Below, piece by piece: positions 14,612 to 58,476 of a stretch of 64,000 nt of DNA. Below the pieces are notes generated by a model, which saw only the letters and a program-made list of their open reading frames with translations, had not been told where the DNA came from and did not search any database. The stretch is from Escherichia phage vB_EcoP-101114UKE3. The stretch's first letter is position 1, and every line of letters starts with the position of its first letter. Position numbers and translations under genes: made by a program. The DNA lies in the sequence record NC_070982.1. One strand, given 5' to 3'.

Positions 14612-14616
14612 GATAA

Positions 14617-32181: not shown

Positions 32182-32770
32182 AGAGTTCTCTCCGTGTCCG
32201 TACAACAATCCAGTTTAAATAATCTACTGCATCTTCTACAGTAGAATTATTCGCTAGGTAGTATGTATTTCTCTGACTACCTTCAATGTAGGAACGAGAA
32301 TCTCCTTTAAAATCACAACCTTCACGAATCACCTGAATTACCTGAACATGGAAATGTTTCTCTAGTTCTTCAACTTCGGCTTTGAACCCACCATCAGAGA
32401 AGACGATAACATCATTCTGTGATGGGATACGTTGTTGAATACTGCTAACAGCAAGTTTACCCATGCAGGTCTCACCAAACATAGGCTTCAGGTAATTCTC
32501 GCTAGTTGCAATCATCAAGTCTCGAACTGACTTACCGTCCCATTCAGGACGGCTATGTTCTTTCCACTCACGATCGTTGTACAGCTCCATGAACTCATAA
32601 AGAGGTAGACCTAATGCAGCAGCAGCCACTCGATACATAGGCTCCTTAAAAGCCTTTACATGAGGCCTAAACTCGGTGTTACCAAGTGTTTTCTCTAACC
32701 AAGAATTAGCGATTGTATCTTTACCACAACCCGGTGGTCCATTCAGAATTACTACTAATGGTTTACTCAT
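32174..32770 (-). CDS. P-loop kinase, deoxynucleoside monophosphate kinase-like (198 aa)
   Basis: N-terminal P-loop GPPGCGKDT. Confidence 0.5.
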   Translation of the reverse strand: MSKPLVVILNGPPGCGKDTIANSWLEKTLGNTEFRPHVKAFKEPMYRVAAAALGLPLYEFMELYNDREWKEHSRPEWDGKSVRDLMIATSENYLKPMFGETCMGKLAVSSIQQRIPSQNDVIVFSDGGFKAEVEELEKHFHVQVIQVIREGCDFKGDSRSYIEGSQRNTYYLANNSTVEDAVDYLNWIVVRTRRELYV

Positions 32771-38128: not shown

Positions 38129-38440
38129 CTACTTCTCCACCACAAAGAGGTTAACTTCAATGAAAGTTTCGTATTGTGTTGACTCCTGCTTACGGGTGTA
38201 GTAGAAATGACGACCTTCTAATGCACCTCCGTACTGAGTGGCACATCTTTTAACCATCTCTTTTATCACATCTACAACTGATTCGCCTTTCCACGGACGT
38301 AACCCCTGAGTTGGGACTTTTGCTGTACAGGTTACTTGTGTGTAACCTACATCTTGTAGAGATATCTCAAGAATCAGCTTTGCCCAAGCATCAAAATTAA
38401 GCTTGGGGTTATATTTAACTTCAGTTTTGATATCAATCAT
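38129..38440 (-). CDS. Hypothetical protein (103 aa)
   Basis: Start overlaps the DNA polymerase stop. Confidence 0.45.
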   Translation of the reverse strand: MIDIKTEVKYNPKLNFDAWAKLILEISLQDVGYTQVTCTAKVPTQGLRPWKGESVVDVIKEMVKRCATQYGGALEGRHFYYTRKQESTQYETFIEVNLFVVEK

Positions 38441-40284
38441 TAGTGAGTATGATTCCAGTTTAATCCAATCTTACAATCTGATGCAAGAGGACATTCCATC
38501 TTGAGGTATTCCCCTGCTTTACGAACACATTCTTCAGTGAGGGTACGAAGTTTGTTAACATCATCACGATGTACAGTGAACTGTCCTTCATCATGCATGT
38601 CAATAACCTTCGCACAACGAACACCATCCCGCTCAATCCATTTATTGAGGAATAGCATTGCATACTTCATAACAATCGCCCCAGCGCTCTGTAAGAGTGT
38701 ATTTAAGGCTTTATGGACCATAACCTTTCCAGTTGCATCTCTTCTCATTGTAATACGACGTCCATCCACACCGTAGATATATCCACTTTGCGCTTTCTCT
38801 GTCATACGTTCAATAAGGATTGCAATACAAGGGTTCTCTGCTAAGAATCTTGCTCTCATGATAGCCCCTTCGTCAGAGCCACCACCTACAATACTTCCTA
38901 ACTTAGCGTCACCTGCCCCATAGTTAAAGGCATAGATAAACGTTTTAGCATTATCACGAGTAGGAAGGCCAGCAAGTTTTTGGTTATGTGAGTGAATATC
39001 TCCTTCTAAAAGAATATCTCTATACATAACAGCAGAAGCTAGACCACGTTCAGCTTCTCGTTTCTTAGCCGGGTTGTTTTCTCGCTCTGCTTCAGCGAGC
39101 ATCTCACGACATTCTTTAATAAGGTAGTGAGCTAGCATCCTCAGCTCAAGACCAGAGCCATCGTAACCTAAGAAGATTTCACGACCAGCAGGAACATAGA
39201 ACTTATAGGCACCTACGGGTTTGTCTTTCTTGCCCGGTTTTCCCACTTCGTAGATAATGTTAGTACCCTTTCGTACGTAACACCCATCAGGGATATGGTT
39301 GGTAATGATGAAAGGATGGTTATGACTATCGTCTGAGGAATAGTCAGATTGAAAAAGACTGCGGCACTCGTGACCAAACAAACCGCGAGAAGGAATATTA
39401 ACAACAATGCGATGTTTAAAACGAAATGTCGGAGTAGCGCAGCTATTAGCTTCGGCGGACAACTTACCATCTTTACGTTCCTTGTCGATAAGCCCGCTAA
39501 TCAAACCTAGCCTGTGAGCCGCTACAACGCGTCTCTTAAGCAAACTTCCTACACCCCCTAGCTCACCCCCAAGCCCCTCTTCAAGAGTCTCCTCAAGGTT
39601 TGTAGGGGCTGTGGGCCACTTGTTTGATGTAGCCAAAGCTTTTTTGATTTCATCAAAGGTTACAGGTTTCTTCCTATTCGGATTAAGACCTAAACCACTG
39701 ACGTAGGCTTTCATGTAGTTGACAGTGTGATAACGGAAATGTTTATCCAAAAATCTTCGGATATCAGCATCTATCATCTCCGCTGTCTGTTTCTCTTTAG
39801 CATTACCTCGAATCCAAGCAGAATACCATGCAGAGTATGTACCATACTTCTTCATAGCTCTACGGATTTCAAATGTATTCCAAGGTTTCTTAGAATAATT
39901 CCACTCTGGAGGTATGAAGCCCTCATCCATCAAGGCTTCTTTAATACGTGCATCTTTCGATGGGTCGAAGTCTACATACTCAACGCAAGTAAACGCCCCA
40001 CCGATATCTTCTCTTTTAAGACCAACCCTATCGCAATAGAGCTGAGGCCACTTCTGTAAAGCACCTGATTTCTTAAAAGGCTTAGCATAAGTTGAACCAT
40101 CCACCCGCATTTTAGGGAGGAGAGGAATCAGTTCTTTATCAATATTGACAATAATCTCTTTGAGAAGGTGAACAAACCACCGAGCGTTTCTTCTGTTGAA
40201 GTTGACTCCATGCTTCGCTTGTTTTGAGATTATATCAGCGACTGTCATCTCCGTTATGAAAGGTAACTTATCAGGGTTATCCAT
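38440..40284 (-). CDS. DNA polymerase, family A, polymerase domain only (614 aa)
   Basis: Motif A DGSGLELR, motif B RDNAKTFIYAFNYGAG, motif C IDMHDEGQ; ATG at 40284 with AAGGAG RBS; no 3'-5' exonuclease domain in this ORF. Confidence 0.8.
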   Translation of the reverse strand: MDNPDKLPFITEMTVADIISKQAKHGVNFNRRNARWFVHLLKEIIVNIDKELIPLLPKMRVDGSTYAKPFKKSGALQKWPQLYCDRVGLKREDIGGAFTCVEYVDFDPSKDARIKEALMDEGFIPPEWNYSKKPWNTFEIRRAMKKYGTYSAWYSAWIRGNAKEKQTAEMIDADIRRFLDKHFRYHTVNYMKAYVSGLGLNPNRKKPVTFDEIKKALATSNKWPTAPTNLEETLEEGLGGELGGVGSLLKRRVVAAHRLGLISGLIDKERKDGKLSAEANSCATPTFRFKHRIVVNIPSRGLFGHECRSLFQSDYSSDDSHNHPFIITNHIPDGCYVRKGTNIIYEVGKPGKKDKPVGAYKFYVPAGREIFLGYDGSGLELRMLAHYLIKECREMLAEAERENNPAKKREAERGLASAVMYRDILLEGDIHSHNQKLAGLPTRDNAKTFIYAFNYGAGDAKLGSIVGGGSDEGAIMRARFLAENPCIAILIERMTEKAQSGYIYGVDGRRITMRRDATGKVMVHKALNTLLQSAGAIVMKYAMLFLNKWIERDGVRCAKVIDMHDEGQFTVHRDDVNKLRTLTEECVRKAGEYLKMECPLASDCKIGLNWNHTH

Positions 40285-42324: not shown

Positions 42325-42502
42325 TTCCTACCTCCGTGTTCTTCATATAAGAAGCTACAGGATTTACACTCTGAGCAATGGATACCTATAACCTTAATTT
42401 CGACAAACTTCTTATTCTTCCCTTTAGTCGGGGAGCCTTTGGCAAGCTCCCGTATTACTTTCGAGTCCAAATGGAGAAGAGTTGATTCACATTTAAAACA
42501 TT

Positions 42503-42823
42503 TCAGATTGATTTGTCCTTATGTAAACGGTATACTTCAGTAGCCATACAAGCTATACGCTCGTCATGTGGGAGATGCATACCAGTAGAGCCGTTCCATC
42601 CTTCGAACTCTGAATCAAAGAATCCAATAGGCTCGGGATACATCTCTTGCAAGGTGGTTAAGTCATCAGCCACTTGTTGCCACTTATCGTCAGACCAGAT
42701 TGGGTCATCCAACCAATAATACAAATAGGAGTGGATAAGCATCTGTGTTCTATGTCGTTTAATCACTTCAGCAGGACTGATTTCATTTCCGTTACCAGTC
42801 CTAAATGTATTATTGTTGATCAT
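42503..42823 (-). CDS. Small protein resembling the N-terminal Ia domain of NAD-dependent DNA ligase (106 aa)
   Basis: YLYYWLDDPIWSDDKWQQVADDLTTLQEMYPE parallels the LigA pattern YLYHV-D-P-I-D-EYD-L...LE-HPEL; no KxDG adenylation motif. Confidence 0.35.
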   Translation of the reverse strand: MINNNTFRTGNGNEISPAEVIKRHRTQMLIHSYLYYWLDDPIWSDDKWQQVADDLTTLQEMYPEPIGFFDSEFEGWNGSTGMHLPHDERIACMATEVYRLHKDKSI

Positions 42824-43299
42824 TCCAAAACCCTTTCTTCTAAATCATAAAAGATTTGATTTGTCCCATTATTCTCAACAAGCACTGTTCCATTATCTAG
42901 CAGGGTAGCAACTTGGGAATAAGGAATGTTCTTTAACATCAGAGCATTAATGGTCGGCTTGTTTTTGAAGTAAGCGACAGGCTCAACATAGAAGGAAATC
43001 CCACGACTTCCTTTAATTGGGGTGCTTGAAGATAGAACCCAAATTGTTTCTGGCTTGTCTATTTCCTTTTCAACACCAACCTCAACAAGAGAGTCAGCAG
43101 CGAAACCTACAGGACGCCTAGAAGAACCAAGCAACCGAACATATCCCGGTAATTTTGACATATTAGACCAACTACCAGTGTTTTCATTAAACACAGGTCT
43201 TACATCACCATATGCCCAAACCAGATTATCATAGTCACGGGCTATGTATTTAACCCAATCAGGAACATCATACTCCCTTCCTTCAAAAATAGCTTTCAT
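42820..43299 (-). CDS. Hypothetical protein (159 aa)
   Basis: RBS AAGGT. Confidence 0.45.
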   Translation of the reverse strand: MKAIFEGREYDVPDWVKYIARDYDNLVWAYGDVRPVFNENTGSWSNMSKLPGYVRLLGSSRRPVGFAADSLVEVGVEKEIDKPETIWVLSSSTPIKGSRGISFYVEPVAYFKNKPTINALMLKNIPYSQVATLLDNGTVLVENNGTNQIFYDLEERVLE

Positions 43300-43494
43300 T
43301 TAGATAACCTTGTGCTTATAGATGTTAGGGTTGTAGTAATGCAACCAGTTTATGTATTGTTTCTGTTCAAGGTAGTGTCTGCAATCATGACAAAAAGCAT
43401 GACCCAAACCTGTTTCCTCGTTCAGCTTGAAGTTGATAAGAAGCTTCTGCTTTTGACAGAAGCTACATGCTTTAGTGGGCTTCACGTAATGCAT
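43300..43494 (-). CDS. Small Cys/His-rich protein, possible zinc ribbon (about 64 aa)
   Basis: C-x2-C ... C-x2-C pattern; start uncertain because the ORF-track frame overlaps the ThyX-like 3' end and the RBS is weak. Confidence 0.25.
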   Translation of the reverse strand: MHYVKPTKACSFCQKQKLLINFKLNEETGLGHAFCHDCRHYLEQKQYINWLHYYNPNIYKHKVI

Positions 43495-44122
43495 CCCATG
43501 AGATTGGGAAAAGTTTACGAAGCTCTTCATCAACAGTTGATGCGAACACTCGTACTTCATACTGAGCATGGTCGGACAGTCGCTGACGACATAACTCTGA
43601 CCAGCCATATAAAGAACCTGTCCACACCCACTCAGTGATCATACCTTGAGGTAGAACGAATCGGGCTTGCTCTGGAGCAATAAACTTAATCAACTCATCA
43701 TATGACTCAAGAGCTGTTTCATATGCCCGATTAATCAGAACTAGTGCAGAGTTTTGCGCTCCCGTGGTGAGGAGATTCCCCGCACCTGCATGGAGGTCCG
43801 AAGGTCTTTCAAAAATCTCTTTAGGGATGAAGAGTTCAACTGCTCCATCTTTATACCGCCGGGACATTTCGTTCCACGAGAATCCAACTTGATGCTTGCC
43901 CAGCTGTCTCGCAATTGCGATTGGCGCTTTGCATCGGAAGCTAATTGTCGGATGGCGGAATGGTGTGACATGCTTTTCTCTGGCAAGGAACTTGATAAGG
44001 CGTTCATCTCGTTCATTTAACTCTCCTTCACGAGTAACCCCAAAGGAAACTCGAGCTGCATTAACAACAGATTTATCAGAACCCATTGCTTCAATTAGTG
44101 TTGCTTGTAATTGTTCGTTCAT
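43472..44122 (-). CDS. thyX: ThyX-like flavin-dependent thymidylate synthase homolog (216 aa), divergent
   Basis: ARVSFG, ARQ...NE-S-RRY and LPQG-x-T blocks fit the ThyX fold, but the RHR signature position reads KHQ. Confidence 0.5.
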   Translation of the reverse strand: MNEQLQATLIEAMGSDKSVVNAARVSFGVTREGELNERDERLIKFLAREKHVTPFRHPTISFRCKAPIAIARQLGKHQVGFSWNEMSRRYKDGAVELFIPKEIFERPSDLHAGAGNLLTTGAQNSALVLINRAYETALESYDELIKFIAPEQARFVLPQGMITEWVWTGSLYGWSELCRQRLSDHAQYEVRVFASTVDEELRKLFPISWDALREAH

Positions 44123-44136
44123 CCTTGAATTCTTCC

Positions 44137-44352
44137 TTAGTAATGAATCTTTTTATAAATCAGGTTGCTTCCACTTTCTGTTTCAATCCCTTTCTGGATT
44201 GTAATCTTAGAAGCACCGGTATTAGCAATTTTTAAAGCTCGTTTAAAGCGGCGAGCCTCTCTCCGTGTTGTGTATGAGGAGAAGCTAGGGATTGTACTAT
44301 CAAAATTAAACCACTTAACTACCCAAAAAGTAATCCAAGGTTTCTTTTCCAT
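44137..44352 (-). CDS. Small hypothetical protein (71 aa), member of a three-gene paralog family
   Basis: Shares W-x-W...TRREAR...KITI-x-K...Y-x-K-x-HY with 46217..46432 and 46432..46629. Confidence 0.45.
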   Translation of the reverse strand: MEKKPWITFWVVKWFNFDSTIPSFSSYTTRREARRFKRALKIANTGASKITIQKGIETESGSNLIYKKIHY

Positions 44353-44353
44353 A

Positions 44354-44629
44354 TTAAATACCTTTCAGAGCTGTATCTAAAAACGCACGGAGGTTTGATT
44401 CAGTTTGCATACCGGACAAGCTGTAGTGAGCACCACTGTTCATGTTAGGAACCACAAAGGCTGGGATACTGCGAACACCATATTCAATGGCTCGCTCTCG
44501 ACCATTACCTTCAGAGATATTTACTTCTTCAACTTCTACGTTGTAATCAGCTACAACTTTCTTAAACACAGGAGCCATAGCTGCACACGGAGCACAGGAA
44601 TTACTATAAAACTTAATTACTTTACTCAT
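44354..44629 (-). CDS. Thioredoxin-like protein with CAPC active site (91 aa)
   Basis: FYSNSCAPCAAMAPVFKKV resembles the thioredoxin WCGPC region; ATG at 44629 with AAGGA RBS. Confidence 0.6.
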   Translation of the reverse strand: MSKVIKFYSNSCAPCAAMAPVFKKVVADYNVEVEEVNISEGNGRERAIEYGVRSIPAFVVPNMNSGAHYSLSGMQTESNLRAFLDTALKGI

Positions 44630-44819
44630 TTTATTCCTTGTTAATAAACAGATTGATATGACGTTGGGTAGCAGGAACAACAATAAAAGATTTATACTGA
44701 CCTTTTGCTAAGTCATGAGCAATCTTCTTTGTCTGACTAAGACCCATTACACAGCCACTAACAATAATAGCATGTGCTTGTAGCTCTTCAGGTAGGTTTA
44801 GTTTCACTCTTTGGGTTCC

Positions 44820-45005
44820 TTATAGCATACAAAGAATAATAACAAGAGGTAGTGTTATAGCAAAATGTACCAGAACAACACTACCTAGCTTGATAGCTTT
44901 AACATCCTCTTCTGCTGGGTTTTCTTTAATTGCTAAATTTCGAGCTTTATATATAACAGTACCAACTATTAACGACCACACGGCCCACACAATCAGTGAA
45001 ATCAT
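44820..45005 (-). CDS. Small two-TM membrane protein (61 aa), tandem paralog of 45015..45194
   Basis: Two hydrophobic helices flanking a KENP-containing loop. Confidence 0.4.
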   Translation of the reverse strand: MISLIVWAVWSLIVGTVIYKARNLAIKENPAEEDVKAIKLGSVVLVHFAITLPLVIILCML

Positions 45006-45014
45006 ATCAAACCC

Positions 45015-45194
45015 TTATGCAGTCAACAGGTGGAGAAGGAAAGGAATGACAACAGAGAAGACTACCAGAGCAATGCTGCCATGTTTAATGGGTTTAGCGT
45101 CATTCGGGTTCTCTTTAAGCATCTGTTTCTGAGCTACATAAACGATACCGCCAACAAAAATTGCCCATACAGACCATACGATTGCTGAAAACAT
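45015..45194 (-). CDS. Small two-TM membrane protein (59 aa), tandem paralog of 44820..45005
   Basis: ATG at 45194 with AAGGA RBS; same helix-LKENP-helix layout. Confidence 0.4.
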   Translation of the reverse strand: MFSAIVWSVWAIFVGGIVYVAQKQMLKENPNDAKPIKHGSIALVVFSVVIPFLLHLLTA

Positions 45195-45257
45195 ACTCAT
45201 ATCCTTATAAAGAAGTTCGCCCCACCTCTTGAACAAAGAGACAGGGCGGAGGTTTGA

Positions 45258-45824
45258 TTAGTAAGACACATCACCACTGGAGTGGGACATGTTGCTCTTG
45301 ACGAAGTAACAGAACTTGCCAAGACCTTCATTAATTTCTTGAAGCATACTCTGGTCCACTGGATAGGTGCACAAGTCTGAATCAAACTCATCCATCTTCT
45401 CAATGATACACATAAGAGTCATGCACATGTCGGAAAGCATACCGTCCATGTCAAGATCAGCGTTACCTTCTCGGAACCAAGCATGACCTAAATAATTACT
45501 AGCAGTAGCATCCACTTTAACACAATGAAAGCGCATACGCTCTGCTATTCGGTCGCCTGCCTCACGAGCATAATCTTCTAGTTCATCGAACATACCATGA
45601 ACACCTTGGAAACCAGCTCCAGAGACGTTCCAGTGGTAGTTCTTTGCTTTGATGTGTAGAAGTTCAAGGTTAGCTTGCACACCACACAAGATGTGTTCTA
45701 AGCTGTTACCGCTAATCAGTTTATTCATTCCCTCAAGACGAGAGATAGAAGAGTCAGTAGCAGAGAATGGGTTGCTAGAACCCACTCGTGTTAGTTCTGG
45801 TAAGTCGAAGACATTATTATGCAT
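45258..45824 (-). CDS. Dps-like ferritin-fold protein (188 aa)
   Basis: KNYHWNVSGAGFQGVHGMFDELEDYAREAGDRIAERM matches the Dps pattern HW-x-V-x-G-x-F...H...F-x-E...D-x-IAER. Confidence 0.65.
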   Translation of the reverse strand: MHNNVFDLPELTRVGSSNPFSATDSSISRLEGMNKLISGNSLEHILCGVQANLELLHIKAKNYHWNVSGAGFQGVHGMFDELEDYAREAGDRIAERMRFHCVKVDATASNYLGHAWFREGNADLDMDGMLSDMCMTLMCIIEKMDEFDSDLCTYPVDQSMLQEINEGLGKFCYFVKSNMSHSSGDVSY

Positions 45825-46146
45825 TAGGTGCATCCCCTTCTAAGTTAGTTGAATTAGCTACATTACGAGCAATGTTATCCATGACCTGCTGTGTAATAAC
45901 AATGCAATTCTGAGGGTCTACTGATTTAGAACGCCCCATCTCAGGGTCATAGACTTTGACTCGCTTGGCTGTTGAGCCAGTAACTTGCAACACTTTGAGA
46001 AGATAGCCTTGGTTTCCAATAGACCATGCAACAACATCACGATTCTTGATATAACGACCAAGCATGTCACGATGATAGAACTGCTGCATAACTTTAGCTT
46101 TGCTAATCTCTTCAGATGGCGGGGCCACTTTACTCAAATCTAACAT
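45817..46146 (-). CDS. Hypothetical protein (109 aa)
   Basis: ATG at 46146 with AGGAGAG RBS; a near-copy of the TAATGTATA element lies about 40 nt upstream. Confidence 0.4.
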   Translation of the reverse strand: MLDLSKVAPPSEEISKAKVMQQFYHRDMLGRYIKNRDVVAWSIGNQGYLLKVLQVTGSTAKRVKVYDPEMGRSKSVDPQNCIVITQQVMDNIARNVANSTNLEGDAPNA

Positions 46147-46216
46147 AACTCTCTCCTGTTTCATACAATATTCTTATACTGTATATACATTTGAGAGTTA
46201 TCATATCTACTACCAA

Positions 46217-46432
46217 CTAGTAATAAACCTTGCTGGATATGAATCCAGCACTGTTATGGATATTTTCAATCCAACGATGAATCTCCACCTTTTCAGCGAT
46301 TCCTAAAGCTTTTGTAGCTTTTATAGTTTTCTTAGCAAGACGAGCCTCTTGTCTTGTGTTGAATAATTGAATACAATCACCACCAAGAGCTTTGTTAGCC
46401 CATTTAGTACGAACTGCCCATAATTTATCCAT
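46217..46432 (-). CDS. Small hypothetical protein (71 aa), paralog family member
   Basis: NTRQEAR and SSKVYY motifs shared with 44137..44352 and 46432..46629. Confidence 0.45.
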   Translation of the reverse strand: MDKLWAVRTKWANKALGGDCIQLFNTRQEARLAKKTIKATKALGIAEKVEIHRWIENIHNSAGFISSKVYY

Positions 46433-46629
46433 TAGTAATGTACCTTTCCGCTGATATAGAAACGACCTGATTTAAAGTCTTGAGCTTTGTGGATAGTGAT
46501 CTTATTAATTGTGCTTTCACAACTTAATAAGAACTTCTTATGAGCGCGAGCTTCTTGACGGGTATTCCTAATACCCATTGACTCTGTACCACTGCTCCAG
46601 TGAATACGAACTACCCAACGTCTTTTCAT
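46432..46629 (-). CDS. Small hypothetical protein (65 aa), paralog family member
   Basis: ATG at 46629 with GTGGAG RBS; NTRQEAR...ITIHK...SGKVHY. Confidence 0.45.
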   Translation of the reverse strand: MKRRWVVRIHWSSGTESMGIRNTRQEARAHKKFLLSCESTINKITIHKAQDFKSGRFYISGKVHY

Positions 46630-46643
46630 TGTTCCAAACTCCA

Positions 46644-46835
46644 CTATCTGTCAACCGATTTAGGGACAAACTGCATTACACAGACCTGACTACGAGGGAG
46701 ATTTATTTCACAAGCGGCTCTTCTCGTCTCAATCTTAACGCTAGAATCTGGACCAACGTTAGATATAAATACTCCCATAGCAAATGCCCCAACTACAAAA
46801 CCTATAGCTAAGTAAGTAGCTTTTTCTTCTTTCAT
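46644..46835 (-). CDS. Small membrane protein (63 aa)
   Basis: N-terminal hydrophobic helix; weak RBS. Confidence 0.35.
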   Translation of the reverse strand: MKEEKATYLAIGFVVGAFAMGVFISNVGPDSSVKIETRRAACEINLPRSQVCVMQFVPKSVDR

Positions 46836-46840
46836 CTTGG

Positions 46841-47374
46841 TTATACACCCTTAGATGCAACTACACCATTACTGCCGTTGTATCGACCCTTCACTGCATA
46901 AGAGTCATCACCAGCGTGAGAGTGTTCGAACATAACCATTTGACCAACACGCATCCCAGCACGAACTCGTAAGCTATGATTATGGGTAACGTTATGAAAT
47001 TCAAAGGTTAGTTTACTGCTGTTAAACCCTGCATCAGCCCAACCAGCATGGAGGTGGTTTAAACCACAACGAGCCATTGAGGAGCGAAGTACAAACAGGC
47101 TTGAGATGTTATCTGGAAGGTTAAACTCTTCCATTGAGTGCGCTAAGAAGAATTGCCCCGGAGTGATAACAATACCATCTTCAGGGATTTTTACTTCTTT
47201 CCACTTGAGGTTTTCTTTAGCATCAATGTCAACAATTCCGTCAGCCTGTTCTTCAACAAGGATAGTATCACCAATACGGATATCCACGCTAGCAGCGTTA
47301 ACATATTTATGCTCCGCATCTAAAAAGCCATTATCAATAACGCTGTGTAATTCTTGAGAACCTAAAAGACTCAT
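46841..47374 (-). CDS. dcd: dCTP deaminase / dUTPase-family enzyme (177 aa)
   Basis: SSMARCGL and GWADAGFNSSKLTFEF blocks typical of the dCTP deaminase family. Confidence 0.7.
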   Translation of the reverse strand: MSLLGSQELHSVIDNGFLDAEHKYVNAASVDIRIGDTILVEEQADGIVDIDAKENLKWKEVKIPEDGIVITPGQFFLAHSMEEFNLPDNISSLFVLRSSMARCGLNHLHAGWADAGFNSSKLTFEFHNVTHNHSLRVRAGMRVGQMVMFEHSHAGDDSYAVKGRYNGSNGVVASKGV

Positions 47375-48819
47375 GAGTTTCTGTTTCCTTGTACAGATGA
47401 TGCCAAATTATTAATCATGTTACGAGCTGTTTCACGAGATAGTGTAACACCTGCTAAGTTGTTATGAAGCTCACCAGATAGCTCACGAGCAGCAGCTCGA
47501 AGTTCTGTACCAAGTGTAGTATCGGAGTGAGCCAAACCATTACGACGACTATAAGGTCGAGGAGCTTCGTTAGCGTCATTAGCCAATGATGCAAAACCAA
47601 TATGAGCAGCTTCACGAGACGCTATAGTTGACACTCGATCTTCCGTAGGGGTTGGCAAATCACCAACTTCTACACGTTCTATATCACCAGCACGTAGACC
47701 CTGAACGACTGAGCTTACTGTTTCCCATGAACGACGAGAACGCTGTAAATCACCCATTGACGGAGAAGAAGCAGGTCGAACAGTTACTCCACCTGTATCA
47801 TGAGTGACATGCCATGTACGAGTATCCATTCCAGAAGAGCGTGCACTACCAAAACTGCCAGTGAAAGTGTCACGAGGTGCCATTGTAGGAGGAACTGCGA
47901 ATCTTTCCTGTTGCCAAGAATCGCGTCTGTTAGTTCCCGGAGTCCAAGGCTGCGTGATTGCTTCAGCACCTATAGTGGTTAATCCGCTAGACCATTCTGT
48001 CTGTAGGTTAACTTCCTCGTCCAGATAACTACGACCCCTTTCCTGAGGAATGTTTAATATAGTTTCCATCATCTTCAGGGTATAATGACGACGCTGATTC
48101 TGATATAAATTTACACCAGCCATAGGTCCAACTAAATCACTAATCAGGTGAACTTCTGGCTCACCGAAAGCTCCCATTGCAAGGTGCATATATTCGGTAG
48201 AACTGCTATAAACTGCAACAGTTGCTTCAGGCCACTTCTTGTGAACATACTTCATTTCACGACCAGATACCACAGGAATGTCACGAGTGTATGACATTGC
48301 AAACAAACCTTCGTTTGACACATACATGTCATCAAGAGACATGAACCCCTGACAGATCATAGGAAAGCGACGGCTTAAAGTATCCATATCCAAAGGTAGA
48401 TTAATCATCATCTGGATTTTAACTTGATCAATCTCAATTTCCAGAATCTCTTGGAAAGTGAAAAGTGCTTCAGCGTAAGTTGTCCCACTAACAGGCTGAA
48501 CTAGGCGAGATGTAGTTTGAAGCCCTTTACTCTCTGTCCAAGACAAGAAGTTGTCAAGGAACAGTGCAGCATTCATCACGTTAGCAGGGTTGTTTTCCTG
48601 ACGGGTGTTCCAACGAAACCCTCCTTGGACTAGGAAGATATCCACATCATTCGGAGTTCGGTTCTGGAAGAACGTATCACGGATAGCACCACCTGCAATA
48701 ACAGGGTAGATACCATCAGGAACTACGTTGTCTCTGATCAGATTGCGAATCAGATCAAGCCCTACGCTGAGGGCTTCTCCTTCTTGAAGGTTTAATTCAG
48801 ACAATGGAATCTTAATCAT
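47371..48819 (-). CDS. Nucleotidyltransferase-fold protein with long S/T/R/G-rich C-terminal region (about 482 aa)
   Basis: GG-x13-DVD pattern (VIAGGAIRDTFFQNRTPNDVDIF) fits Pol-beta-type NTase; ATG at 48819 sits 2 nt after the exonuclease stop. Confidence 0.5.
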   Translation of the reverse strand: MIKIPLSELNLQEGEALSVGLDLIRNLIRDNVVPDGIYPVIAGGAIRDTFFQNRTPNDVDIFLVQGGFRWNTRQENNPANVMNAALFLDNFLSWTESKGLQTTSRLVQPVSGTTYAEALFTFQEILEIEIDQVKIQMMINLPLDMDTLSRRFPMICQGFMSLDDMYVSNEGLFAMSYTRDIPVVSGREMKYVHKKWPEATVAVYSSSTEYMHLAMGAFGEPEVHLISDLVGPMAGVNLYQNQRRHYTLKMMETILNIPQERGRSYLDEEVNLQTEWSSGLTTIGAEAITQPWTPGTNRRDSWQQERFAVPPTMAPRDTFTGSFGSARSSGMDTRTWHVTHDTGGVTVRPASSPSMGDLQRSRRSWETVSSVVQGLRAGDIERVEVGDLPTPTEDRVSTIASREAAHIGFASLANDANEAPRPYSRRNGLAHSDTTLGTELRAAARELSGELHNNLAGVTLSRETARNMINNLASSVQGNRNS

Positions 48820-48821
48820 TT

Positions 48822-49370
48822 CTACATTTTCCAATTTAGAGATGGGGGATTCTTATAATCAAATCCAGCCATTTGGCAAAGACACATGTAAACCTTAACT
48901 GTCAAGTTAACGTCTTGCTCACAATACGTGAACATGTCTTCAGTGAATGCATCCCATGCTTCTTCCTGTTCACCATAATCACCCTTCAGCTCTCCCAGAA
49001 ATTCGCCCCATTGCTTGAGGCCATGACCGCGAGGGCCATGTCTAGGGTCGCCTTTGGGGTATTCTGGACTATCACCAATACGGTCAGGCTTGAGATATCT
49101 ACTCAGGCACAAAGTATCGAAGACGTTAAAGCGAAAAGGTATCACATGAGAATAAAACTTAAACAAAGCAGGAAGGTCAAAATCAATAATATTGTGACCT
49201 ATTACTACATCAGCTTCTTTCAGTTTGTGTAGTGCTTCTTCAATTTGGTGAGGGCGATACCCCCACCGCTCTCCAGATAATACATCAAATATCCAGATAC
49301 ACCAGACATTCTGAATACCATCATAGAGATTATCACCCTCGATATCAAACGCATACAGTTTCTTTACCAC
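48822..49370 (-). CDS. DnaQ-like 3'-5' exonuclease, stand-alone proofreading domain (182 aa); GTG start
   Basis: Exo I FDIE, Exo [13 protein letters not shown], Exo III YCEQD; GTG at 49370 preceded by GGAGG. Confidence 0.65.
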
Positions 49371-51154
49371 GGACGTGCCTCCCCTTCCTGTGCAAGTAAG
49401 GAAGCTGCATCCTCTCCATTGGTAACGGTAAAAGGATGCTCTTCATCAACTTCATGATCTTCTCGTTCTACAAGACGACCTGTTTCGTTAATGTATTTGG
49501 TATAGCAAACCCCTGTCTGTCCATAGTTACGCTCTTTGAGCAGTCGTATGATTGACAAGTTTTTACCTAACCCATCCGCTTGTTTGTTACGTTCAAAACC
49601 AATAATACACTGACACCAGCGCATCAATGAACGTGAACCAGTAAACTGTACTTCTTTAACCTGACCACCTTCTTCGTGAGGTGCACCACCTGCCGGAGCG
49701 TTCAAGTGAGATAATACAAAAGCAGTGAAGTCTAATTCCTTACACATACCAGCAAGCTCTGAAGCAATCTTGCTGATTTCTGTGTTTACCTCAGATGGGG
49801 TTAAGTGAGATACCAATGCAGTGATGTTATCAAGAATGATAAATTTACACTGATTCTCAACTACCCAAAAGCGAATACACTGCTTAATGTCTTCCCACTC
49901 GTTCTGCCCAAAGTTGTCATACAAGAAAAACTTATCAGCGTATCGAAGTGCTTCATCTCGTAGCTGGCTTTCTTCGTACTCAACATCTGGTCGGTGGAAT
50001 GGAATAGATGCAGATTTACCTGCAATGTTCTTAACAGACATGCCTACCTTCTCTTCCAAGAAGAAGCCACCACCATTAAAACCATGCTCAAGGCAAAGCC
50101 ATGCTACTAGTTCGTGTGCGATTAAGGTTTTACCTGAACCAACACCACCGCCGATTGCAACCATCTCTCCCCAACGAATACCAAAGGTCATGTCGTTAAG
50201 AGTTTTCCACGGATAAGGAATACCCCATTCCGCTTTCTTCAGAGCATCTTCGAGGCAATCAAAAACTGTAACAGCTCCAGCAGGAGATTCCCGCTTAGCT
50301 GAATATTTCAGATTGTTGAAAAGCTCTTGACCTCTCCCTGCAAGTAACATGTCGTTTGCATCTTTGATTTCCTTTTCTTGTCCGTTATAAGTGAACGTAC
50401 CTTTTGGAATCCTTGCAAACTTAACATGCGGGTACAGAGAACGACCCTTAGTTAAAGCAATCTCACCTGCATCATCATTGTCCATGCAGAGTACAATCTC
50501 CTCGAAACCATTAATAAAATCACGGTTTCTTGATAATACAGAAGAGATTGAACCTGCACCGAACGGAAGAGAGACGCAAGCAGGTTTGATGTTAGTTGCG
50601 TTTGTAAACGCGGTAAGTACGTGGAACCCAGACATACAAGAGAGAGGATCTTCAAAGATGAAGAGTTTCTTGTTGTATACGTCACCACGTTGTGCTTGAG
50701 CCATACCAAACAAGTCGGCTTCTTTCACATTACCTACATAATAGAACTTCTTGCTGTCTAGAAGTTTTACTTCATATCCAACAATGTTCCCATCACGTTC
50801 ACGAGGGAAGAAGTAGCTGTCAGGAGTTTGACCATCTGTTTGGCTTAAACCGATACGGCATCCATAACGTTCAGATACAGCTTTAGGAATTAAGCGACGA
50901 GTCAACTCTCCCTGAGGAAGCTCTAAGCAATCGTCTAAGACTTCTCGGAGTTCTTCAGGGGACAGCTCTTTCTTTTCATTAGGAGTGGGCGTCGTTCCTT
51001 TCTCGAAGATTTCATACGCACCACATCTGTTACATGAACCCCACTCCTCACCGGACTCTTCATTTCGGAAGAGAATCATGTGATTGCGGGTCTTATCACG
51101 ACCATGAGAGATACACTCTTTACAGCCTGTGTCTCCCAAAATGATCTTTGACAT
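49364..51154 (-). CDS. Primase-helicase (596 aa)
   Basis: N-terminal C-x2-C...C-x2-C zinc ribbon, central primase-like region, C-terminal Walker [10 protein letters not shown]; RBS AAGGAGG. Confidence 0.8.
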
Positions 51155-51189
51155 GCTCTATCCTCCTTGGAATTCCTTGAGCAATCTTC

Positions 51190-51396
51190 TTAGTAAAACG
51201 ATCGTATTTCTTCCCACACATCATCTTGCAAGTTTCTAAAACCCTGCAAGGTTTGCTTTGTTCTGTGAATAAATTCTTCAGAGTGCTTATCAGGTGTGAG
51301 CATACTGACAAACTTTTCATAGCGATTAATCTTCCACCGCATCTTCAAGTAGTCAGATTCCAGCTTTCTTAACTTCTGCCTGTCAGTTACTGTCAT
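51190..51396 (-). CDS. Small hypothetical protein (68 aa)
   Basis: ORF-track frame 51190..51492 trimmed to the ATG at 51396. Confidence 0.35.
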   Translation of the reverse strand: MTVTDRQKLRKLESDYLKMRWKINRYEKFVSMLTPDKHSEEFIHRTKQTLQGFRNLQDDVWEEIRSFY

Positions 51397-51814
51397 CCTT
51401 CTCACCTGCCAGATATGCTGTCCAGTCACCAGATTCAACCAGAACATCTTGTTCTTCGTCGATGTGATAAATCCACGCTTCCACAGTTTCACCGCTGTCC
51501 AATAATACTGGAATCAGTGTACGCTTGTAAAAGGTGTATGGGTTATCATTACCACGATGACCTTCCAGACCGTCATACGGACCTTCCAGACCAGCTTGGG
51601 TTGTTTCAAAGACTTCTACACGAACAGGCTTACCATTGCTGTCATGCTCCAAAGATACACTTGGGAAGTATGCTGTGCAATACTGATACAGGTTACAGTT
51701 GTTTACTGTCCACCCTTCACCAATAGACACACCACCTGCACGAGCATTGATAGCGTGGTTGTGTTGACCTTTACGAAGAGAACCATACGTTGCAACTAAT
51801 ACTTTATCAGACAT
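51383..51814 (-). CDS. AIG2 / gamma-glutamyl cyclotransferase-like protein (143 aa)
   Basis: N-terminal YGSL motif (VATYGSLRKG) with downstream acidic residues; RBS AAAAGG. Confidence 0.55.
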   Translation of the reverse strand: MSDKVLVATYGSLRKGQHNHAINARAGGVSIGEGWTVNNCNLYQYCTAYFPSVSLEHDSNGKPVRVEVFETTQAGLEGPYDGLEGHRGNDNPYTFYKRTLIPVLLDSGETVEAWIYHIDEEQDVLVESGDWTAYLAGEKDDSN

Positions 51815-51818
51815 TACA

Positions 51819-52016
51819 TTACCTTTTGTTTAAAATTTCTTTTGTACAAGAAGTCCCGTTACACACGAGAACTGTTTGAGTTATAGAATCGACAACTGTT
51901 ACATGGCTGCCGCATTGAGTTATGATTTGACCTCTCCCTGAATCTTTAGAGATGCATTCATCAGCGGCGATCGCTGACACACTGAATAAGGAGAGGAAAA
52001 ATAGAATCTTTTTCAT
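51819..52016 (-). CDS. Small secreted cysteine-rich protein (65 aa)
   Basis: Signal peptide MKKILFFLSLFSVSAIA followed by about 48 residues with 4 Cys. Confidence 0.45.
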   Translation of the reverse strand: MKKILFFLSLFSVSAIAADECISKDSGRGQIITQCGSHVTVVDSITQTVLVCNGTSCTKEILNKR

Positions 52017-52022
52017 GGCTGC

Positions 52023-52439
52023 TTACCAATCATGTTGGAAACCAGAATATCCAGAGAAGATGATTGATCGGATTGGCTTTTCAGGGAATCCTTCAAAACA
52101 TCCCTTAATGGCTTTCTTGGTTTCATCAGAAATTGACTCTTTTTCACCAAACCAATATTCTTCAAAAATATCAGAGAAGATATAAGTTCGGTATCTTTCC
52201 AAGTCATAAAAACCTTCCACTGCACTTGTAACAGCTCTACTAATTACACTTGAAGCTACAGGAAATAAGTCACCGTGTTCCAGAAACAAGCACCAACGAT
52301 CAAAGAGAGGAATCTCTTCATCTTTCAGAAGACTTTCTAACTCTTCCTTTGCCTCTTTCTTGTGCTTCTCAAAGAGGTTTTTGGAATACTCTACATCTAA
52401 GATACGACTTTTAAACATATCCAGTTTATTATTAACCAT
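52023..52439 (-). CDS. Hypothetical protein (138 aa)
   Basis: RBS AGAGG. Confidence 0.45.
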   Translation of the reverse strand: MVNNKLDMFKSRILDVEYSKNLFEKHKKEAKEELESLLKDEEIPLFDRWCLFLEHGDLFPVASSVISRAVTSAVEGFYDLERYRTYIFSDIFEEYWFGEKESISDETKKAIKGCFEGFPEKPIRSIIFSGYSGFQHDW

Positions 52440-52496
52440 TTTACAACCTCTAGTTAAATTCGAACTAGCCTCCTCTTTCGAAGAGGCTAAAGCAAA

Positions 52497-52682
52497 TTAT
52501 TCTACTTCGAAGTGTTTGATCACACCAGTCAGTACATCAGATTGGAATGTACCCACTAGCTCTGTACCTCGGAAAAAGTTAACACTTGTTCCAAGTGATT
52601 CAAAGCGATCTGCTTGAATGTCCAGAGATTGAATATTTCCTTCTGCTGACATTGTACGAAACATGATTGTGTATTTATTCAC
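52497..52682 (-). CDS. Small hypothetical protein (61 aa), GTG start
   Basis: GTG at 52682 with AAGGGAG RBS, overlapping the upstream stop. Confidence 0.35.
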   Translation of the reverse strand: MNKYTIMFRTMSAEGNIQSLDIQADRFESLGTSVNFFRGTELVGTFQSDVLTGVIKHFEVE

Positions 52683-52921
52683 AGACTCGTTACTCCCTTA
52701 TCTGCTTGTGCAATTGCGATGATACGCTCAGCACATTCCATTGAATACTTATCACCTCGTTTGAGGAAGGTGATGATTGCAGAGAACTGATTACCAATCA
52801 TTCTCTTATTTGTGATACCAAACTCTTCACAGAGTTGGTTGATAGCTTTACGAGAGCCTACAATCAGAGGCTCTTTTTCTTCGGTCATTCCACGGCTGAT
52901 CAAATCTTCGATAGACAACAT
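52679..52921 (-). CDS. Small hypothetical protein (80 aa)
   Basis: ORF in the operon. Confidence 0.4.
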   Translation of the reverse strand: MLSIEDLISRGMTEEKEPLIVGSRKAINQLCEEFGITNKRMIGNQFSAIITFLKRGDKYSMECAERIIAIAQADKGVTSL

Positions 52922-52947
52922 TACAAATTCCTTTTTGTTTAATTTAA

Positions 52948-54183
52948 TTACAGAGTTACTGCTACTTCGCTACCTTCAACATTGACAGACTCTAACTTGC
53001 GAGGGTTATGAATCTGGACTGGATTGACCGGAACGTTCCAACCACTGCGGTAGAAGTTACGACCATCACAGAACAAAATGACATTGGCAGACATTGCATT
53101 CGGTTGAAGGTTGTTGTGGACGTGACGGATATCTGCAATCCAGTAACCACGAGACAAAGTGTAACCAGTAGGTGCATTACGAATAGTTTGAGTATTCATC
53201 TGACCTTCTAGCTGCATTTCTTCAGGAACTACATCTACCGAATCAACCGGCTGTGCTACTTGTCCTTCCAGTGCAAAGTTTTCATCATCAGCACTTTCAA
53301 TATCATCCACTAACTCACCGTCTCCATCTTCAATCGGAGTCTGGTAAACCACTTTATACTGAGGAGTATAGAGAGGGTTCTGAGCTTTAACAAACTCAAG
53401 AATGTTATGACGGTAGGTATCCAGAGTTGTACCAGTCAGGCCCGGTGCTGTATTAACTTCCAGTACCCACGCTTCTTGACCTTTGGTGATAATATCAACT
53501 GCACCGAAATCCAGACCCATTGATTCAACAGCTTTCACTGCATTGATCAGAGAGGCGTCATTCGGAGCATCTGTGAAGGAGCTTGAGTAAACCCAGCCAG
53601 TGTGGTGATTACGAATATCTTCACGATAGTTAGGGTCTTCGCGATAACCATTGCGACGAATCTTCTTCTGAACATAGGTGATTACACCTTTGAACACATG
53701 GACACGCCACTCACGACGTGGGCCTTGAATGCCTTTAGTGTACAGTTCAGCTCGACCAAGACCATCACCCGGTTCTACAACAACAATGCCCGAACCAGAG
53801 TGACCAGTCAGCTCATGGCGCTCATACACAATATTACCAGTGTTTGACCACTCTTGAGCAGTCTCTTGAACATCTGTGTATTCCACAGTTTTAACACCTG
53901 CTTGGTCCATCACGCTGAAAGCACGACGTTTGTTCGCTGCCATATGTAAGGCTGCGGTACGGTTAAGGACGGTTGCAGAACCAAAGAATGATTCAGGATA
54001 GCGACGGTTCCCGTAGTTAACAACCACATCACCTTCACGAGAACGCCAGCGGCTATTCTCTGAAAGAAGACCCATCACGTTAGCATTGATGCGTTCATCA
54101 CGGATAGTATCACTGATAGCAGATACTAGAGCGTTAACAGAATCAGACGGGCCATACGGAAGAACACGGATACGAGTAGTCAT
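52948..54183 (-). CDS. ATP-grasp ligase (411 aa)
   Basis: Glycine-rich GHSGSGIVVV loop and C-terminal VLEVNTAPGLTG motif typical of ATP-grasp enzymes. Confidence 0.7.
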   Translation of the reverse strand: MTTRIRVLPYGPSDSVNALVSAISDTIRDERINANVMGLLSENSRWRSREGDVVVNYGNRRYPESFFGSATVLNRTAALHMAANKRRAFSVMDQAGVKTVEYTDVQETAQEWSNTGNIVYERHELTGHSGSGIVVVEPGDGLGRAELYTKGIQGPRREWRVHVFKGVITYVQKKIRRNGYREDPNYREDIRNHHTGWVYSSSFTDAPNDASLINAVKAVESMGLDFGAVDIITKGQEAWVLEVNTAPGLTGTTLDTYRHNILEFVKAQNPLYTPQYKVVYQTPIEDGDGELVDDIESADDENFALEGQVAQPVDSVDVVPEEMQLEGQMNTQTIRNAPTGYTLSRGYWIADIRHVHNNLQPNAMSANVILFCDGRNFYRSGWNVPVNPVQIHNPRKLESVNVEGSEVAVTL

Positions 54184-54185
54184 TT

Positions 54186-54416
54186 TTAGATACCTTTTAG
54201 TTTAAGAATTTCGTTACGACAGGATTGAATTTTAGCTTCGATTGCCCAATACTCAGCGAACATTTCGTCTTCTTGGGCATCGCTTGGAGAGTCGATTAAG
54301 TTAAAAGCAAACGGATACAGCTTTCGCTGCTCCGTTACCAGTTGTTGAAGTCGGAGTTGTTGATACTCCAGCATTGTCAGGTGAGGCTTAGCTCCCTTGC
54401 TTGACATGAGGCTCAA
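54186..54416 (-). CDS. Small hypothetical protein (about 76 aa), possible TTG start
   Basis: TTG at 54416 with AAGGGG RBS; the first ATG is at 54407. Confidence 0.35.
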   Translation of the reverse strand: MSLMSSKGAKPHLTMLEYQQLRLQQLVTEQRKLYPFAFNLIDSPSDAQEDEMFAEYWAIEAKIQSCRNEILKLKGI

Positions 54417-54621
54417 CTTTAATCCCCTTCATTTTAACATAGTCAGCCAACACGTTATTGATAACGGTTGGAAAAGGGATTTCTACTGGAGAGTCAACCA
54501 GCTTCCCAATACCTTCTTGCATCCACTTCTGGATTGCTCGGAGGTTATCACATCCTGTGCTTGTCATCGGAATACGGCGGGTAGTTACCACGTTATCCAA
54601 CATCAGTTTACGAACTTCCAT
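54388..54621 (-). CDS. Small hypothetical protein (77 aa)
   Basis: RBS AAGAGG. Confidence 0.4.
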   Translation of the reverse strand: MEVRKLMLDNVVTTRRIPMTSTGCDNLRAIQKWMQEGIGKLVDSPVEIPFPTVINNVLADYVKMKGIKVEPHVKQGS

Positions 54622-54632
54622 AACTATACCTC

Positions 54633-56666: not shown

Positions 56667-56743
56667 TTTCTAATCCACCTGAAGGGTAAACCCTTTCATC
56701 TAATTAACCTTTAAATGCGCCCTGTATAAGAGCGCCCGTTGTG

Positions 56744-57844
56744 TTACAGCAGTCGTTCTAATTGCATTTCCAGATGGTCTGGAATATAACCAGTGACGTT
56801 ATCATCACTGCTACCTGATTCACGCATCAATGCAAACATGTGACGAATTTCACGAACCGTTGCGATTCGAGTGCTTTCAATCTGAGGGGTGTAGTAGGTC
56901 ATGATCTCTTCGTAGACACTGTTGGCATTACCGCGCACATATCCCAAGAAACCATAGAAGTCATTCATATCACGTAAGTTGATAAGGACTTCACCATCAG
57001 GGCCAGTCTGTTGCACACGAACACGACCAACCAAAGTTACAGATTGCTCACGACAGAAGAGAATATCACGAGCAAGACGATACCCTTCAGTGAGATCACT
57101 GTCTCTTGGAGTATAGTCTAGGGGTAGATGTTGAATCATAGGAGCGAAGCGCAGCTCATTCAACTTCTCAACATAAGCTTCATTGTCTAAATCTGCATAT
57201 TCAACAGCCAGTTTCTTGAGAACCAAGAAGCGGTTGACCAGATTCAGAAGTTGGCTCTTTTTCCACTTCGGCTCTGAGATACGGAACTCAACAGAACCAA
57301 ATTGAGATAGAGGCAAAAGATTAAGGGAGGTGTATTTATCCCAGCTATTAACAAGAGAGTGGAAGAAAGCTTCCCCGTCTCGGTTGAACGCTGACGAAGC
57401 ATTCATAACTTGTGCTTGAACGACAGCAAAAGCTGGACAGAAGTTGCTACGATAGCGATGGTATCCAGAACATTTGAACATCATCTTTTCATAGAACGTC
57501 CATCCAAGAATAACTTTCTTAAGGATATTACTATCAGCGTCACGCATATCCATATGAACGTGAGTGGAGCAGCGCCAAGTTCCCTCGGCTCCAGAATCCT
57601 GTACTGCTTCACTCAGATTGTTAATAGCACGAAGTAATTCTTCACCGTTGTAAGGTCGTGCACATACTAATTCACAACCATCACGAAGAGAGCCATCTTC
57701 AGTACAAACCCACATATCAGCGTCAATGTCAGTTGTACCTTCGACTTCTAACTCAATACCAACACCACACTGAAAAGCAATACTTGGATGCGGTTCAGAT
57801 AAGCGAGGGTTACGGTATCCAAAAACTTGTGCTACGGTTGTCAT
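56744..57844 (-). CDS. Amidoligase-like (carboxylate-amine ligase, glutamine synthetase-like fold) protein (366 aa)
   Basis: GVGIELEVEG near the N-terminus and a downstream STHVHMD motif; genomic context with GAT-II-like and AIG2-like genes. Confidence 0.45.
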   Translation of the reverse strand: MTTVAQVFGYRNPRLSEPHPSIAFQCGVGIELEVEGTTDIDADMWVCTEDGSLRDGCELVCARPYNGEELLRAINNLSEAVQDSGAEGTWRCSTHVHMDMRDADSNILKKVILGWTFYEKMMFKCSGYHRYRSNFCPAFAVVQAQVMNASSAFNRDGEAFFHSLVNSWDKYTSLNLLPLSQFGSVEFRISEPKWKKSQLLNLVNRFLVLKKLAVEYADLDNEAYVEKLNELRFAPMIQHLPLDYTPRDSDLTEGYRLARDILFCREQSVTLVGRVRVQQTGPDGEVLINLRDMNDFYGFLGYVRGNANSVYEEIMTYYTPQIESTRIATVREIRHMFALMRESGSSDDNVTGYIPDHLEMQLERLL

Positions 57845-58467: not shown

Positions 58468-58476
58468 AATATCACC

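Follow-up and report, generated by a model that had tools for sequence, protein, structure and literature searches.

A truncated thioredoxin encoded without a ribonucleotide reductase in a kuravirus with a split T7-like DNA polymerase

The 64,000-nucleotide stretch of Escherichia phage vB_EcoP-101114UKE3 analyzed here (sequence record NC_070982.1; the window in what follows) carries on its minus strand, at positions 44354 to 44629, the gene of a short thioredoxin (Trx) that lies in a genome devoid of a ribonucleotide reductase (RNR). Trx is a truncated, non-canonical member of the thioredoxin family and a real, selected gene, for which expression is known from the orthologue of phage SU10. The reading that we tentatively prefer, at a likelihood somewhat short of even, is that Trx is a redox-active thioredoxin supporting the host RNR and the supply of deoxynucleoside triphosphates (dNTPs); it is supported because the distribution of Trx among related phages follows nucleotide metabolism and not the polymerase.

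According to a 2026 preprint, no study has ever addressed what phage-encoded thioredoxins do (bioRxiv 10.1101/2025.10.05.680603). The kuraviruses and the 7-11-like phages provide a clean natural case, in which the thioredoxin is kept and an own RNR is absent; its target must therefore be either an enzyme of the host or the T7-like polymerase, in which a shortened thioredoxin-binding domain (TBD) is present. If the redox role is true, these phages boost ribonucleotide reduction by the host. If instead Trx confers processivity, the clamp-substitute trick of T7 has been internalized by the phage, no phage-encoded thioredoxin before Trx would have been shown to be a polymerase accessory factor rather than an RNR reductant, and a new pair of processive polymerase and cofactor could be a practical gain. 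Kuraviruses grow on E. coli, which makes experiments simple.

Identity of the short thioredoxin

The open reading frame (ORF) runs on the minus strand from an ATG at 44629 to a stop codon at 44356-44354 and encodes 91 aa, starting MSKVIKFYSNSCAPCAAMAPVFKK; the translation is also given as beginning MSKVIKFYSNSCAPCAAMAP. A first inspection of the sequence (the original prediction) had proposed that a 91-aa thioredoxin-fold protein with a C-A-P-C site is encoded here, and this was borne out by Pfam, AlphaFold2 (AF2), Foldseek, and the sequence. Trx matched Pfam Thioredoxin (PF00085) with an E value of 3.9e-12 and 46.5 bits (cut-off 23.5) and PHROG 22 'thioredoxin domain' with E 1.3e-10, and many thioredoxins among the PDB sequences matched with E values down to 2.7e-8. 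The AF2 model, with a predicted local distance difference test (pLDDT) score of 92.2, adopts a β-α-β-α-β-β-α topology (strand 3-8, helix 13-26, strand 32-37, helix 43-49, strand 57-61, strand 68-72, helix 77-89), and its best Foldseek matches were E. coli TrxA and other thioredoxins (probability 1.00, template modeling (TM) score ∼0.8, 26-28% identity), not glutaredoxins. Membership of the thioredoxin family, by sequence and by fold, is far beyond chance.

The alignment to TrxA begins at TrxA residue 23/24, and TrxA residues 1-22 have no counterpart; the N-terminal β1 and α1 of the classical protein are therefore missing, and Trx has a minimal thioredoxin fold with a four-stranded sheet in place of the five-stranded sheet of TrxA. 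In its size (75-91 aa) and in its minimal topology Trx resembles the NrdH-redoxins and glutaredoxins, from which it differs by a CAPC motif (rather than CVQC or CPYC) and by a thioredoxin-type Pro40, and it stayed below the Pfam Glutaredoxin cut-off (E 0.055, 14.1 bits against 22.9).

Although Trx is only 28% identical to TrxA, the core of the fold is shared and most of the catalytic residues have equivalents. Both a CxxC motif at the N terminus of the first long helix and a cis-Pro loop are present: Cys12-Ala13-Pro14-Cys15 (codons at 44585 to 44596, minus strand) open helix 13-26, and Pro56 (codon at 44462 to 44464, minus strand), in the motif R53-S-I-P56, aligns with cis-Pro76 of TrxA. Cys32, Pro34, Cys35, and Pro40 of TrxA correspond to Cys12, Pro14, Cys15, and Pro20, and Ile60, Arg73, Ile75, and Gly92 are kept as Ile38, Arg53, Ile55, and Gly73. 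Trp31 is changed to Ser11, Gly74 to Ser54, and the buried pair Asp26/Lys57 to Lys6/Glu35, so that the canonical WCGPC and the buried Asp26 are replaced by S-C-A-P-C and Lys6. The Asp26/Lys57 pair of TrxA appears charge-swapped in Trx, which fits a catalytic core that has been preserved. The homologous proteins of Proteus phage Privateer and Salmonella phage pSal-SNUABM-01 likewise have Lys6, and Lys6/Glu35 is maybe a compensated change of that core. Judged by this alignment, Trx carries all the catalytic hallmarks of the family except Trp31 and Asp26.

Cys12, Pro14, and Cys15 are invariant in nine orthologues, and Pro20, Ile38, Arg53, Ile55, Pro56, and Gly73 are likewise invariant among the kuravirus orthologues. 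Both cysteines, Pro14, Pro20, the arginine, and the cis-proline are kept in the 35-50% identical proteins of Privateer (CSPC) and pSal-SNUABM-01 (CAPC). Conservation of CxPC and the cis-proline at this level of divergence suggests selection on redox chemistry. Copies of the gene at ≥60% identity are carried by ∼96 kuravirus records, the ratio of nonsynonymous to synonymous substitution rates (dN/dS) among orthologues is 0.03 to 0.21 with dS up to ∼1.7 (saturated synonymous divergence), and mass spectrometry detected the orthologue of SU10 with 52.8% coverage (PMC4281155). The Trx of Bas87, a kuravirus of the BASEL collection, is 98.9% identical. On these grounds we regard the gene as real, expressed, and selected, and the substitution ratios indicate that it is under purifying selection. 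Trx is a core middle gene of podophages of the C3 morphotype, and the orphan, truncated phage thioredoxin is an ordinary, already annotated gene that poses a puzzle already recognized in the literature.

The stop codon of an upstream 58-aa ORF (44631 to 44807, minus strand; phrog_19504) ends 1 nt before the ATG of Trx, and the ATG of a downstream 71-aa ORF (44137 to 44352, minus strand; phrog_4939) lies 1 nt after its stop codon; with 1-nt spacings on both sides, the genes form a tightly packed string of orf58, trx, orf71, and thyX. A Shine-Dalgarno-like AAGGA, read from the sequence, is found at 44635 to 44639 (minus strand), 5 nt upstream of the Trx ATG and inside the end of the 58-aa ORF. 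Around Trx, a scan for promoters and terminators turned up nothing particular to this gene, and the same was true when TAATGTAT, the motif of the phage sigma factor, was looked for.

Nucleotide metabolism and the missing ribonucleotide reductase

Between positions 40000 and 50000 the window is 100% identical to MZ234015.1 (Escherichia phage vB_EcoP-101114BS3, 75,747 bp; Kuravirus, Gordonclarkvirinae, phiEco32 group) and 90-99% identical to ∼20 other kuraviruses. The window is a circular permutation of this record, window position 1 corresponding to record position 54146 and window position 21548 to record position 1, and lacks only record positions 42454-54145, which hold small early ORFs of ≤300 aa. 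The first 55 bases of MZ234015.1 are repeated at the end of the record and collapsed in the window (21548-21602); this repeat is an assembly overlap of a circularized contig, not a demonstrated terminal repeat.

The original prediction had noted that no RNR is encoded in the window, and this holds for the full 75.7-kb genome. When NrdA, NrdB, and NrdD of Privateer were compared by phmmer with all ORFs of ≥40 aa of the full genome, no match was obtained at E≤1 (the positive control, Privateer, gave E=0), and an RNR is likewise absent from the annotation of the whole record and from the large ORFs as scanned with Pfam and PHROG. A hidden RNR among the large unannotated ORFs was rejected, these being a glutamine amidotransferase (667 aa), an ATP-grasp protein, two amidoligases, a nucleotidyltransferase, and structural proteins. 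A ferritin-like protein (45258 to 45833, minus strand) was likewise considered as an RNR R2 subunit and rejected, as it is Dps, a DNA-binding protein that regularly accompanies Trx in phages of the C3 morphotype (Pfam Ferritin, E 7.3e-8; phrog_3636); the gene is mislabeled 'integrase' in MZ234015 and bears the Dps-like motif HWNVSGAGFQGVHGMFDELEDYAREAGDRIAERM.

Five phages that share the polymerase type were compared. The kuravirus of the window has the short Trx, no RNR, and the set of dCTP deaminase (Dcd; dCTP, deoxycytidine triphosphate), the flavin-dependent thymidylate synthase ThyX, and Dps. Phage pSal-SNUABM-01 (7-11-like, Grimontviridae) also has a short Trx and no RNR in 89.5 kb; it encodes a free-standing ATP-cone protein, and its module runs in the order primase/helicase, exonuclease, Dcd, PhoH, Trx, followed further on by ThyX and Dps and then by the polymerase. 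Privateer combines its short Trx with NrdA, NrdB, and NrdD and an ATP-cone protein, in the order Dcd, Trx, hypothetical, Dps. Aeromonas phage APT65 encodes NrdAB and NrdDG, and its 76-aa short Trx (WCQAC), which matches the hidden Markov model of kuravirus Trx with E 2.4e-7, lies directly downstream of nrdB-nrdA, its Dcd/Dps/ThyX module being without a Trx. Pseudomonas phage phiIBB-PAA2 (LUZ24-like) has no RNR and no Dcd, ThyX, or Dps, and no Trx was found in it by hmmsearch or phmmer with --max; it does have the split polymerase with the insert described below (motif SGPFTAIEYIPFDLGK). Among database records, the polymerase matches 216 Pseudomonas phage records, and Pseudomonas is not among the main Trx-bearing organisms (tblastn).

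From the five-phage comparison and the distribution of Pseudomonas hits we conclude that Trx tracks nucleotide-metabolism genes and, where it is present, RNR, rather than the TBD-like insert of the polymerase. In related phages a link between homologous redoxins and RNR is seen, by gene order in APT65 and by the joint presence of Trx with NrdA, NrdB, and NrdD in Privateer. The next-closest relatives of Trx are 'thioredoxin/nrdC' genes of T5-like phages, which are 35-39% identical and also of truncated architecture. A scan of IMG/VR with the Trx alignment gave nine loci, five of them from kuraviruses, which are too few for statistics. The ATP-cone proteins (PF03477) of Privateer (L014, 20910-21206) and pSal-SNUABM-01 (L016, 11747-12049), with E values of 2e-20 and 1.1e-6, are free-standing and directly downstream of Dps; that of pSal-SNUABM-01, with no phage RNR to regulate, may act on the host RNR or on NrdR. 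No ATP-cone counterpart was found in the kuravirus genome.

Trx thus stands beside T4 NrdC, Syn5 TrxA, the T5-like 'thioredoxin/nrdC' proteins, and the APT65 short Trx as a small redoxin in a DNA-precursor context, and it shares with the T5-like and APT65 redoxins a truncated architecture and detectable sequence similarity. Unlike these RNR-linked redoxins, it occurs in kuravirus and pSal-SNUABM-01 genomes that lack an RNR, and any RNR client would therefore be the host enzyme. For cyanophage Syn5, a thioredoxin that has redox activity and increases replication of the phage DNA is reported, and the authors of that study favor reduction of RNR (bioRxiv 10.1101/2025.10.05.680603).

The proposal that Trx lies in a nucleotide and replication block agrees with the genes around it: ThyX, Dps, and dCTP deaminase are all nearby. 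ThyX (43472 to 44122, minus strand; Pfam Thy1, E 1.1e-42) is encoded by the second gene downstream of Trx within the packed string, dCTP deaminase at 46841 to 47374 (minus strand; Pfam DCD, E 1.6e-34), and a deoxynucleoside monophosphate (dNMP) kinase at 32174 to 32770 (minus strand; GenBank annotation, record 10627-11223, offset +21547). In the redox role that we prefer, Trx would be made together with the nucleotide-metabolism enzymes of the phage, would be maintained in the reduced state by TrxB, the thioredoxin reductase of the host, with reduced nicotinamide adenine dinucleotide phosphate (NADPH), and would hand its electrons mainly to ribonucleotide reduction; since the phage lacks an RNR, NrdAB, the class Ia enzyme of the host, would be the client. 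The raised flux of deoxynucleoside diphosphates and dCTP would feed dCTP deaminase, then host Dut, ThyX, the phage dNMP kinase, and finally the T7-like replisome. The support for this role comprises the fold, the active-site architecture, the conservation of and selection on the gene, the expression of an orthologue, the nucleotide-metabolism context, the linkage of related short thioredoxins to RNR in sister phages, and the precedent of Syn5. ThyX itself was considered as a thioredoxin client and rejected on general biochemical grounds: the enzyme uses flavin adenine dinucleotide and NADPH, and we know of no biochemical basis for its reduction by a thioredoxin.

Several points weigh against a role in host ribonucleotide reduction. 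Neither this phage nor pSal-SNUABM-01 encodes an RNR, and since a host RNR is already served by TrxA and Grx1, the gain from a second thioredoxin is unproven. The changes of Trp31 to Ser, Gly74 to Ser, and Asp26 to Lys mean that activity and recognition by TrxB and NrdA cannot be assumed, and in Privateer and the T5-like phage examined the Trx gene is not adjacent to the RNR genes. Finally, the conserved TBD homologue in the polymerase keeps a non-redox role plausible. The two roles are not mutually exclusive and could coexist; E. coli TrxA performs both.

The split polymerase and other possible roles

The polymerase of the window is split into a polymerase subunit of 614 aa (38440 to 40284, minus strand) and a separate 3'-5' exonuclease subunit of 182 aa (48822 to 49370, minus strand; Pfam DNA_pol_A_exo1; phrog_38876, phrog_403). 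The polymerase subunit is a T7-like family A DNA polymerase: it matched T7 gp5 with E 5e-33 in phmmer, a profile of 53 polymerase sequences aligned to gp5 in hhalign with a probability of 100 and E 6.8e-54, and the top 27 Foldseek matches were all T7 gp5 (best E 7e-26). T7 gp5 is the closest solved relative of the kuravirus subunit, and a T7 gp4-like primase/helicase (49364 to 51154, minus strand; Pfam DnaB_C and Toprim_2) is encoded nearby, as in T7 replication.

A thioredoxin-binding loop was sought in the polymerase thumb by alignment and in the model, and a shortened homologue of the T7 TBD was found. This insert (residues ∼54-110; 39955 to 40125, minus strand) is homologous to T7 gp5 262-338 and sits between thumb helices H and H1, the position of the TBD in T7, in the phmmer, MAFFT, and hhalign alignments. 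It measures ∼56 aa against 77 in T7, ∼22 residues being missing from the N-terminal half of the domain. Its C-terminal part is clearly homologous (GGAFTCVEYVDFDPSKDARIKEALMDEGFIPPEW versus T7 GAPYTPVEHVVFNPSSRDHIQKKLQEAGWVPTKY) and contains G96-A-F98-T99-C-V-E-Y-V-D-F106-D-P-S-K, the motif GGAFTCVEYVDFDPSK aligning with T7 GAPYTPVEHVVFNPSS. Phe98-Thr99 align with Tyr326-Thr327 of T7, of which Thr327 is the residue that lies against Cys32 of thioredoxin. Mean identity over the insert is 0.52, like that of the catalytic core, versus 0.30 in variable, lineage-specific inserts, and Pro54, Pro57, Pro69, Gly74, Gly96, Phe98, and Phe106 are invariant over 53 homologues. The AF2 model of the insert shows, with confidence, a strand (59-66), a helix (78-87), and a second strand (98-104). 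The length of the insert agrees with the half-size TBD of split T7-like family A polymerases, in which the domain is shortened by about half (Czernecki et al., PMC10201439). A mixed disulfide through Cys100 of the polymerase, next to Thr99, was considered and dropped because homologues have Ala, Val, or Gly in place of this cysteine.

Some kuraviruses have an interrupted polymerase gene, namely ECBP2 (L004, ∼14781-17260), L007 (∼14122-16760), and L008 (∼14900-17400). The frame breaks at ∼aa 566 (ECBP2, L008) or ∼aa 455 (L007) and is taken up again after several hundred bases, and ECBP2 is annotated with two 'DNA polymerase' coding sequences. The interruption in these three is probably an intron or a homing-endonuclease insertion.

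These features bear on the idea that Trx is a self-supplied processivity factor that acts on the shortened TBD of the split polymerase, as TrxA acts on T7 gp5, and thereby frees replication from host trxA. We consider this somewhat less likely than the redox role and more likely than the remaining alternatives, and its fuller form, a three-piece polymerase made of the exonuclease subunit, the polymerase subunit with its half-size TBD, and the phage Trx, independent of host trxA, is slightly less likely again. The idea is not new, since the authors of the Privateer paper hypothesized in 2021 that the thioredoxin of C3 phages is a processivity factor of the T7-like polymerase (PeerJ 2021, PMC7881722). 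We found no data in the literature on the dependence of kuraviruses or phiEco32 on host trxA.

In its favor, the polymerase is T7-like by three methods, its TBD homologue keeps the strand that in T7 faces the thioredoxin active site, and the insert is conserved like the catalytic core with many invariant residues. Trx and the polymerase occur together in all C3-morphotype phages examined, ∼4 kb apart and on the same strand; the phage has no RNR to account for Trx; and the substrate-binding groove residues Pro34, Ile60, Ile75, Pro76, and Gly92 are retained. The kuravirus arrangement departs from that of T7 in its shorter TBD homologue, in an exonuclease that forms a protein of its own, and in a truncated thioredoxin that the phage itself encodes and whose pairing with the polymerase is putative. 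Both cysteines of Trx are strictly conserved, which a T7-type processivity role does not need. If Trx were the dedicated ligand of the insert, the two would be expected to co-occur; phiIBB-PAA2, however, has the insert and its contact motif, equally well kept, without a Trx, and lineages that have a Trx do not differ in this motif from those that lack one. A conserved ligand of the insert, if there is one, would therefore more simply be host TrxA. APT65, which has the same polymerase type, places its short Trx not with the polymerase but downstream of nrdB-nrdA. Binding to T7 gp5 is also highly specific, recruitment being very poor for a thioredoxin that shares 57% identity with TrxA (PMC8010470), whereas Trx shares 28% and carries the Trp31 to Ser and Gly74 to Ser changes. 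AF2 failed to dock the host thioredoxin on a split T7-like polymerase with a half-size TBD (PMC10201439), and for Syn5, the thioredoxin that AlphaFold 3 placed on the TBD was that of the host rather than that of the phage (bioRxiv 10.1101/2025.10.05.680603). Of the original prediction that a phage thioredoxin might serve the split family A polymerase, the split T7-like enzyme and its TBD-like insert thus stand, and nothing ties the insert to the phage Trx rather than to host TrxA.

Trx could alternatively be an antioxidant or disulfide-repair thioredoxin that works with Dps, serving thioredoxin-dependent peroxidases and methionine sulfoxide reductases of the host and guarding replicating DNA and enzymes against peroxide; we hold this to be improbable. 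ThyX, encoded two genes from Trx, is a possible source of H2O2, which is a product of its oxidase side reaction; this link between ThyX and peroxide is drawn from general knowledge. Trx and Dps are neighbors in Privateer and lie in the same module in pSal-SNUABM-01, they are reported as the two annotated middle genes that the five C3 phages then known all share (PMC4281155), and the Privateer authors placed the thioredoxin under stress response (PMC7881722). However, APT65 keeps the Dps, Dcd, and ThyX module without a Trx and has its short Trx beside the RNR genes instead, and no peroxiredoxin or reductase partner was seen in the scanned phage ORFs or the record annotation.

A last reading, that Trx has no current function and is what is left, in decay, of an RNR-thioredoxin module since lost, as the presence of RNR in related phages and its absence from the kuravirus might suggest, is effectively refuted by the selection and expression data, that is, by the low dN/dS at saturated synonymous divergence, the invariant active-site residues, the retention of the gene by ∼96 kuravirus genomes as well as by the 7-11-like lineage and that of Privateer, and the detection of the SU10 protein by mass spectrometry (PMC4281155).

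Other genes of the locus

Directly downstream of the Dps gene (45248-45218) there is a strong hairpin and, after it, a tract rich in T. A 487-aa protein encoded between the exonuclease subunit and dCTP deaminase (47371-48834, minus strand) matched phrog_12715 'nucleotidyltransferase' with E 2e-165 and had no Pfam match; at the syntenic position Privateer and pSal-SNUABM-01 have neither an annotated nucleotidyltransferase nor a gene of similar size. A 106-aa protein encoded between PhoH and the ThyX block (42503-42823, minus strand) consists of domain Ia of an NAD-dependent ligase only (Nlig-Ia, PF22745, E 8.2e-34), and this NAD+-binding domain stands alone, with no ligase catalytic domain seen nearby. 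The early block (52948-60226, minus strand) encodes an ATP-grasp/RimK-like protein (411 aa), a class II glutamine amidotransferase (667 aa), an Amidoligase_2 protein, and a phiEco32-type COOH-NH2 ligase, and this ATP-grasp/amidotransferase/amidoligase set is syntenic in phiIBB-PAA2 (LUZ24-like), Privateer, pSal-SNUABM-01, and APT65.

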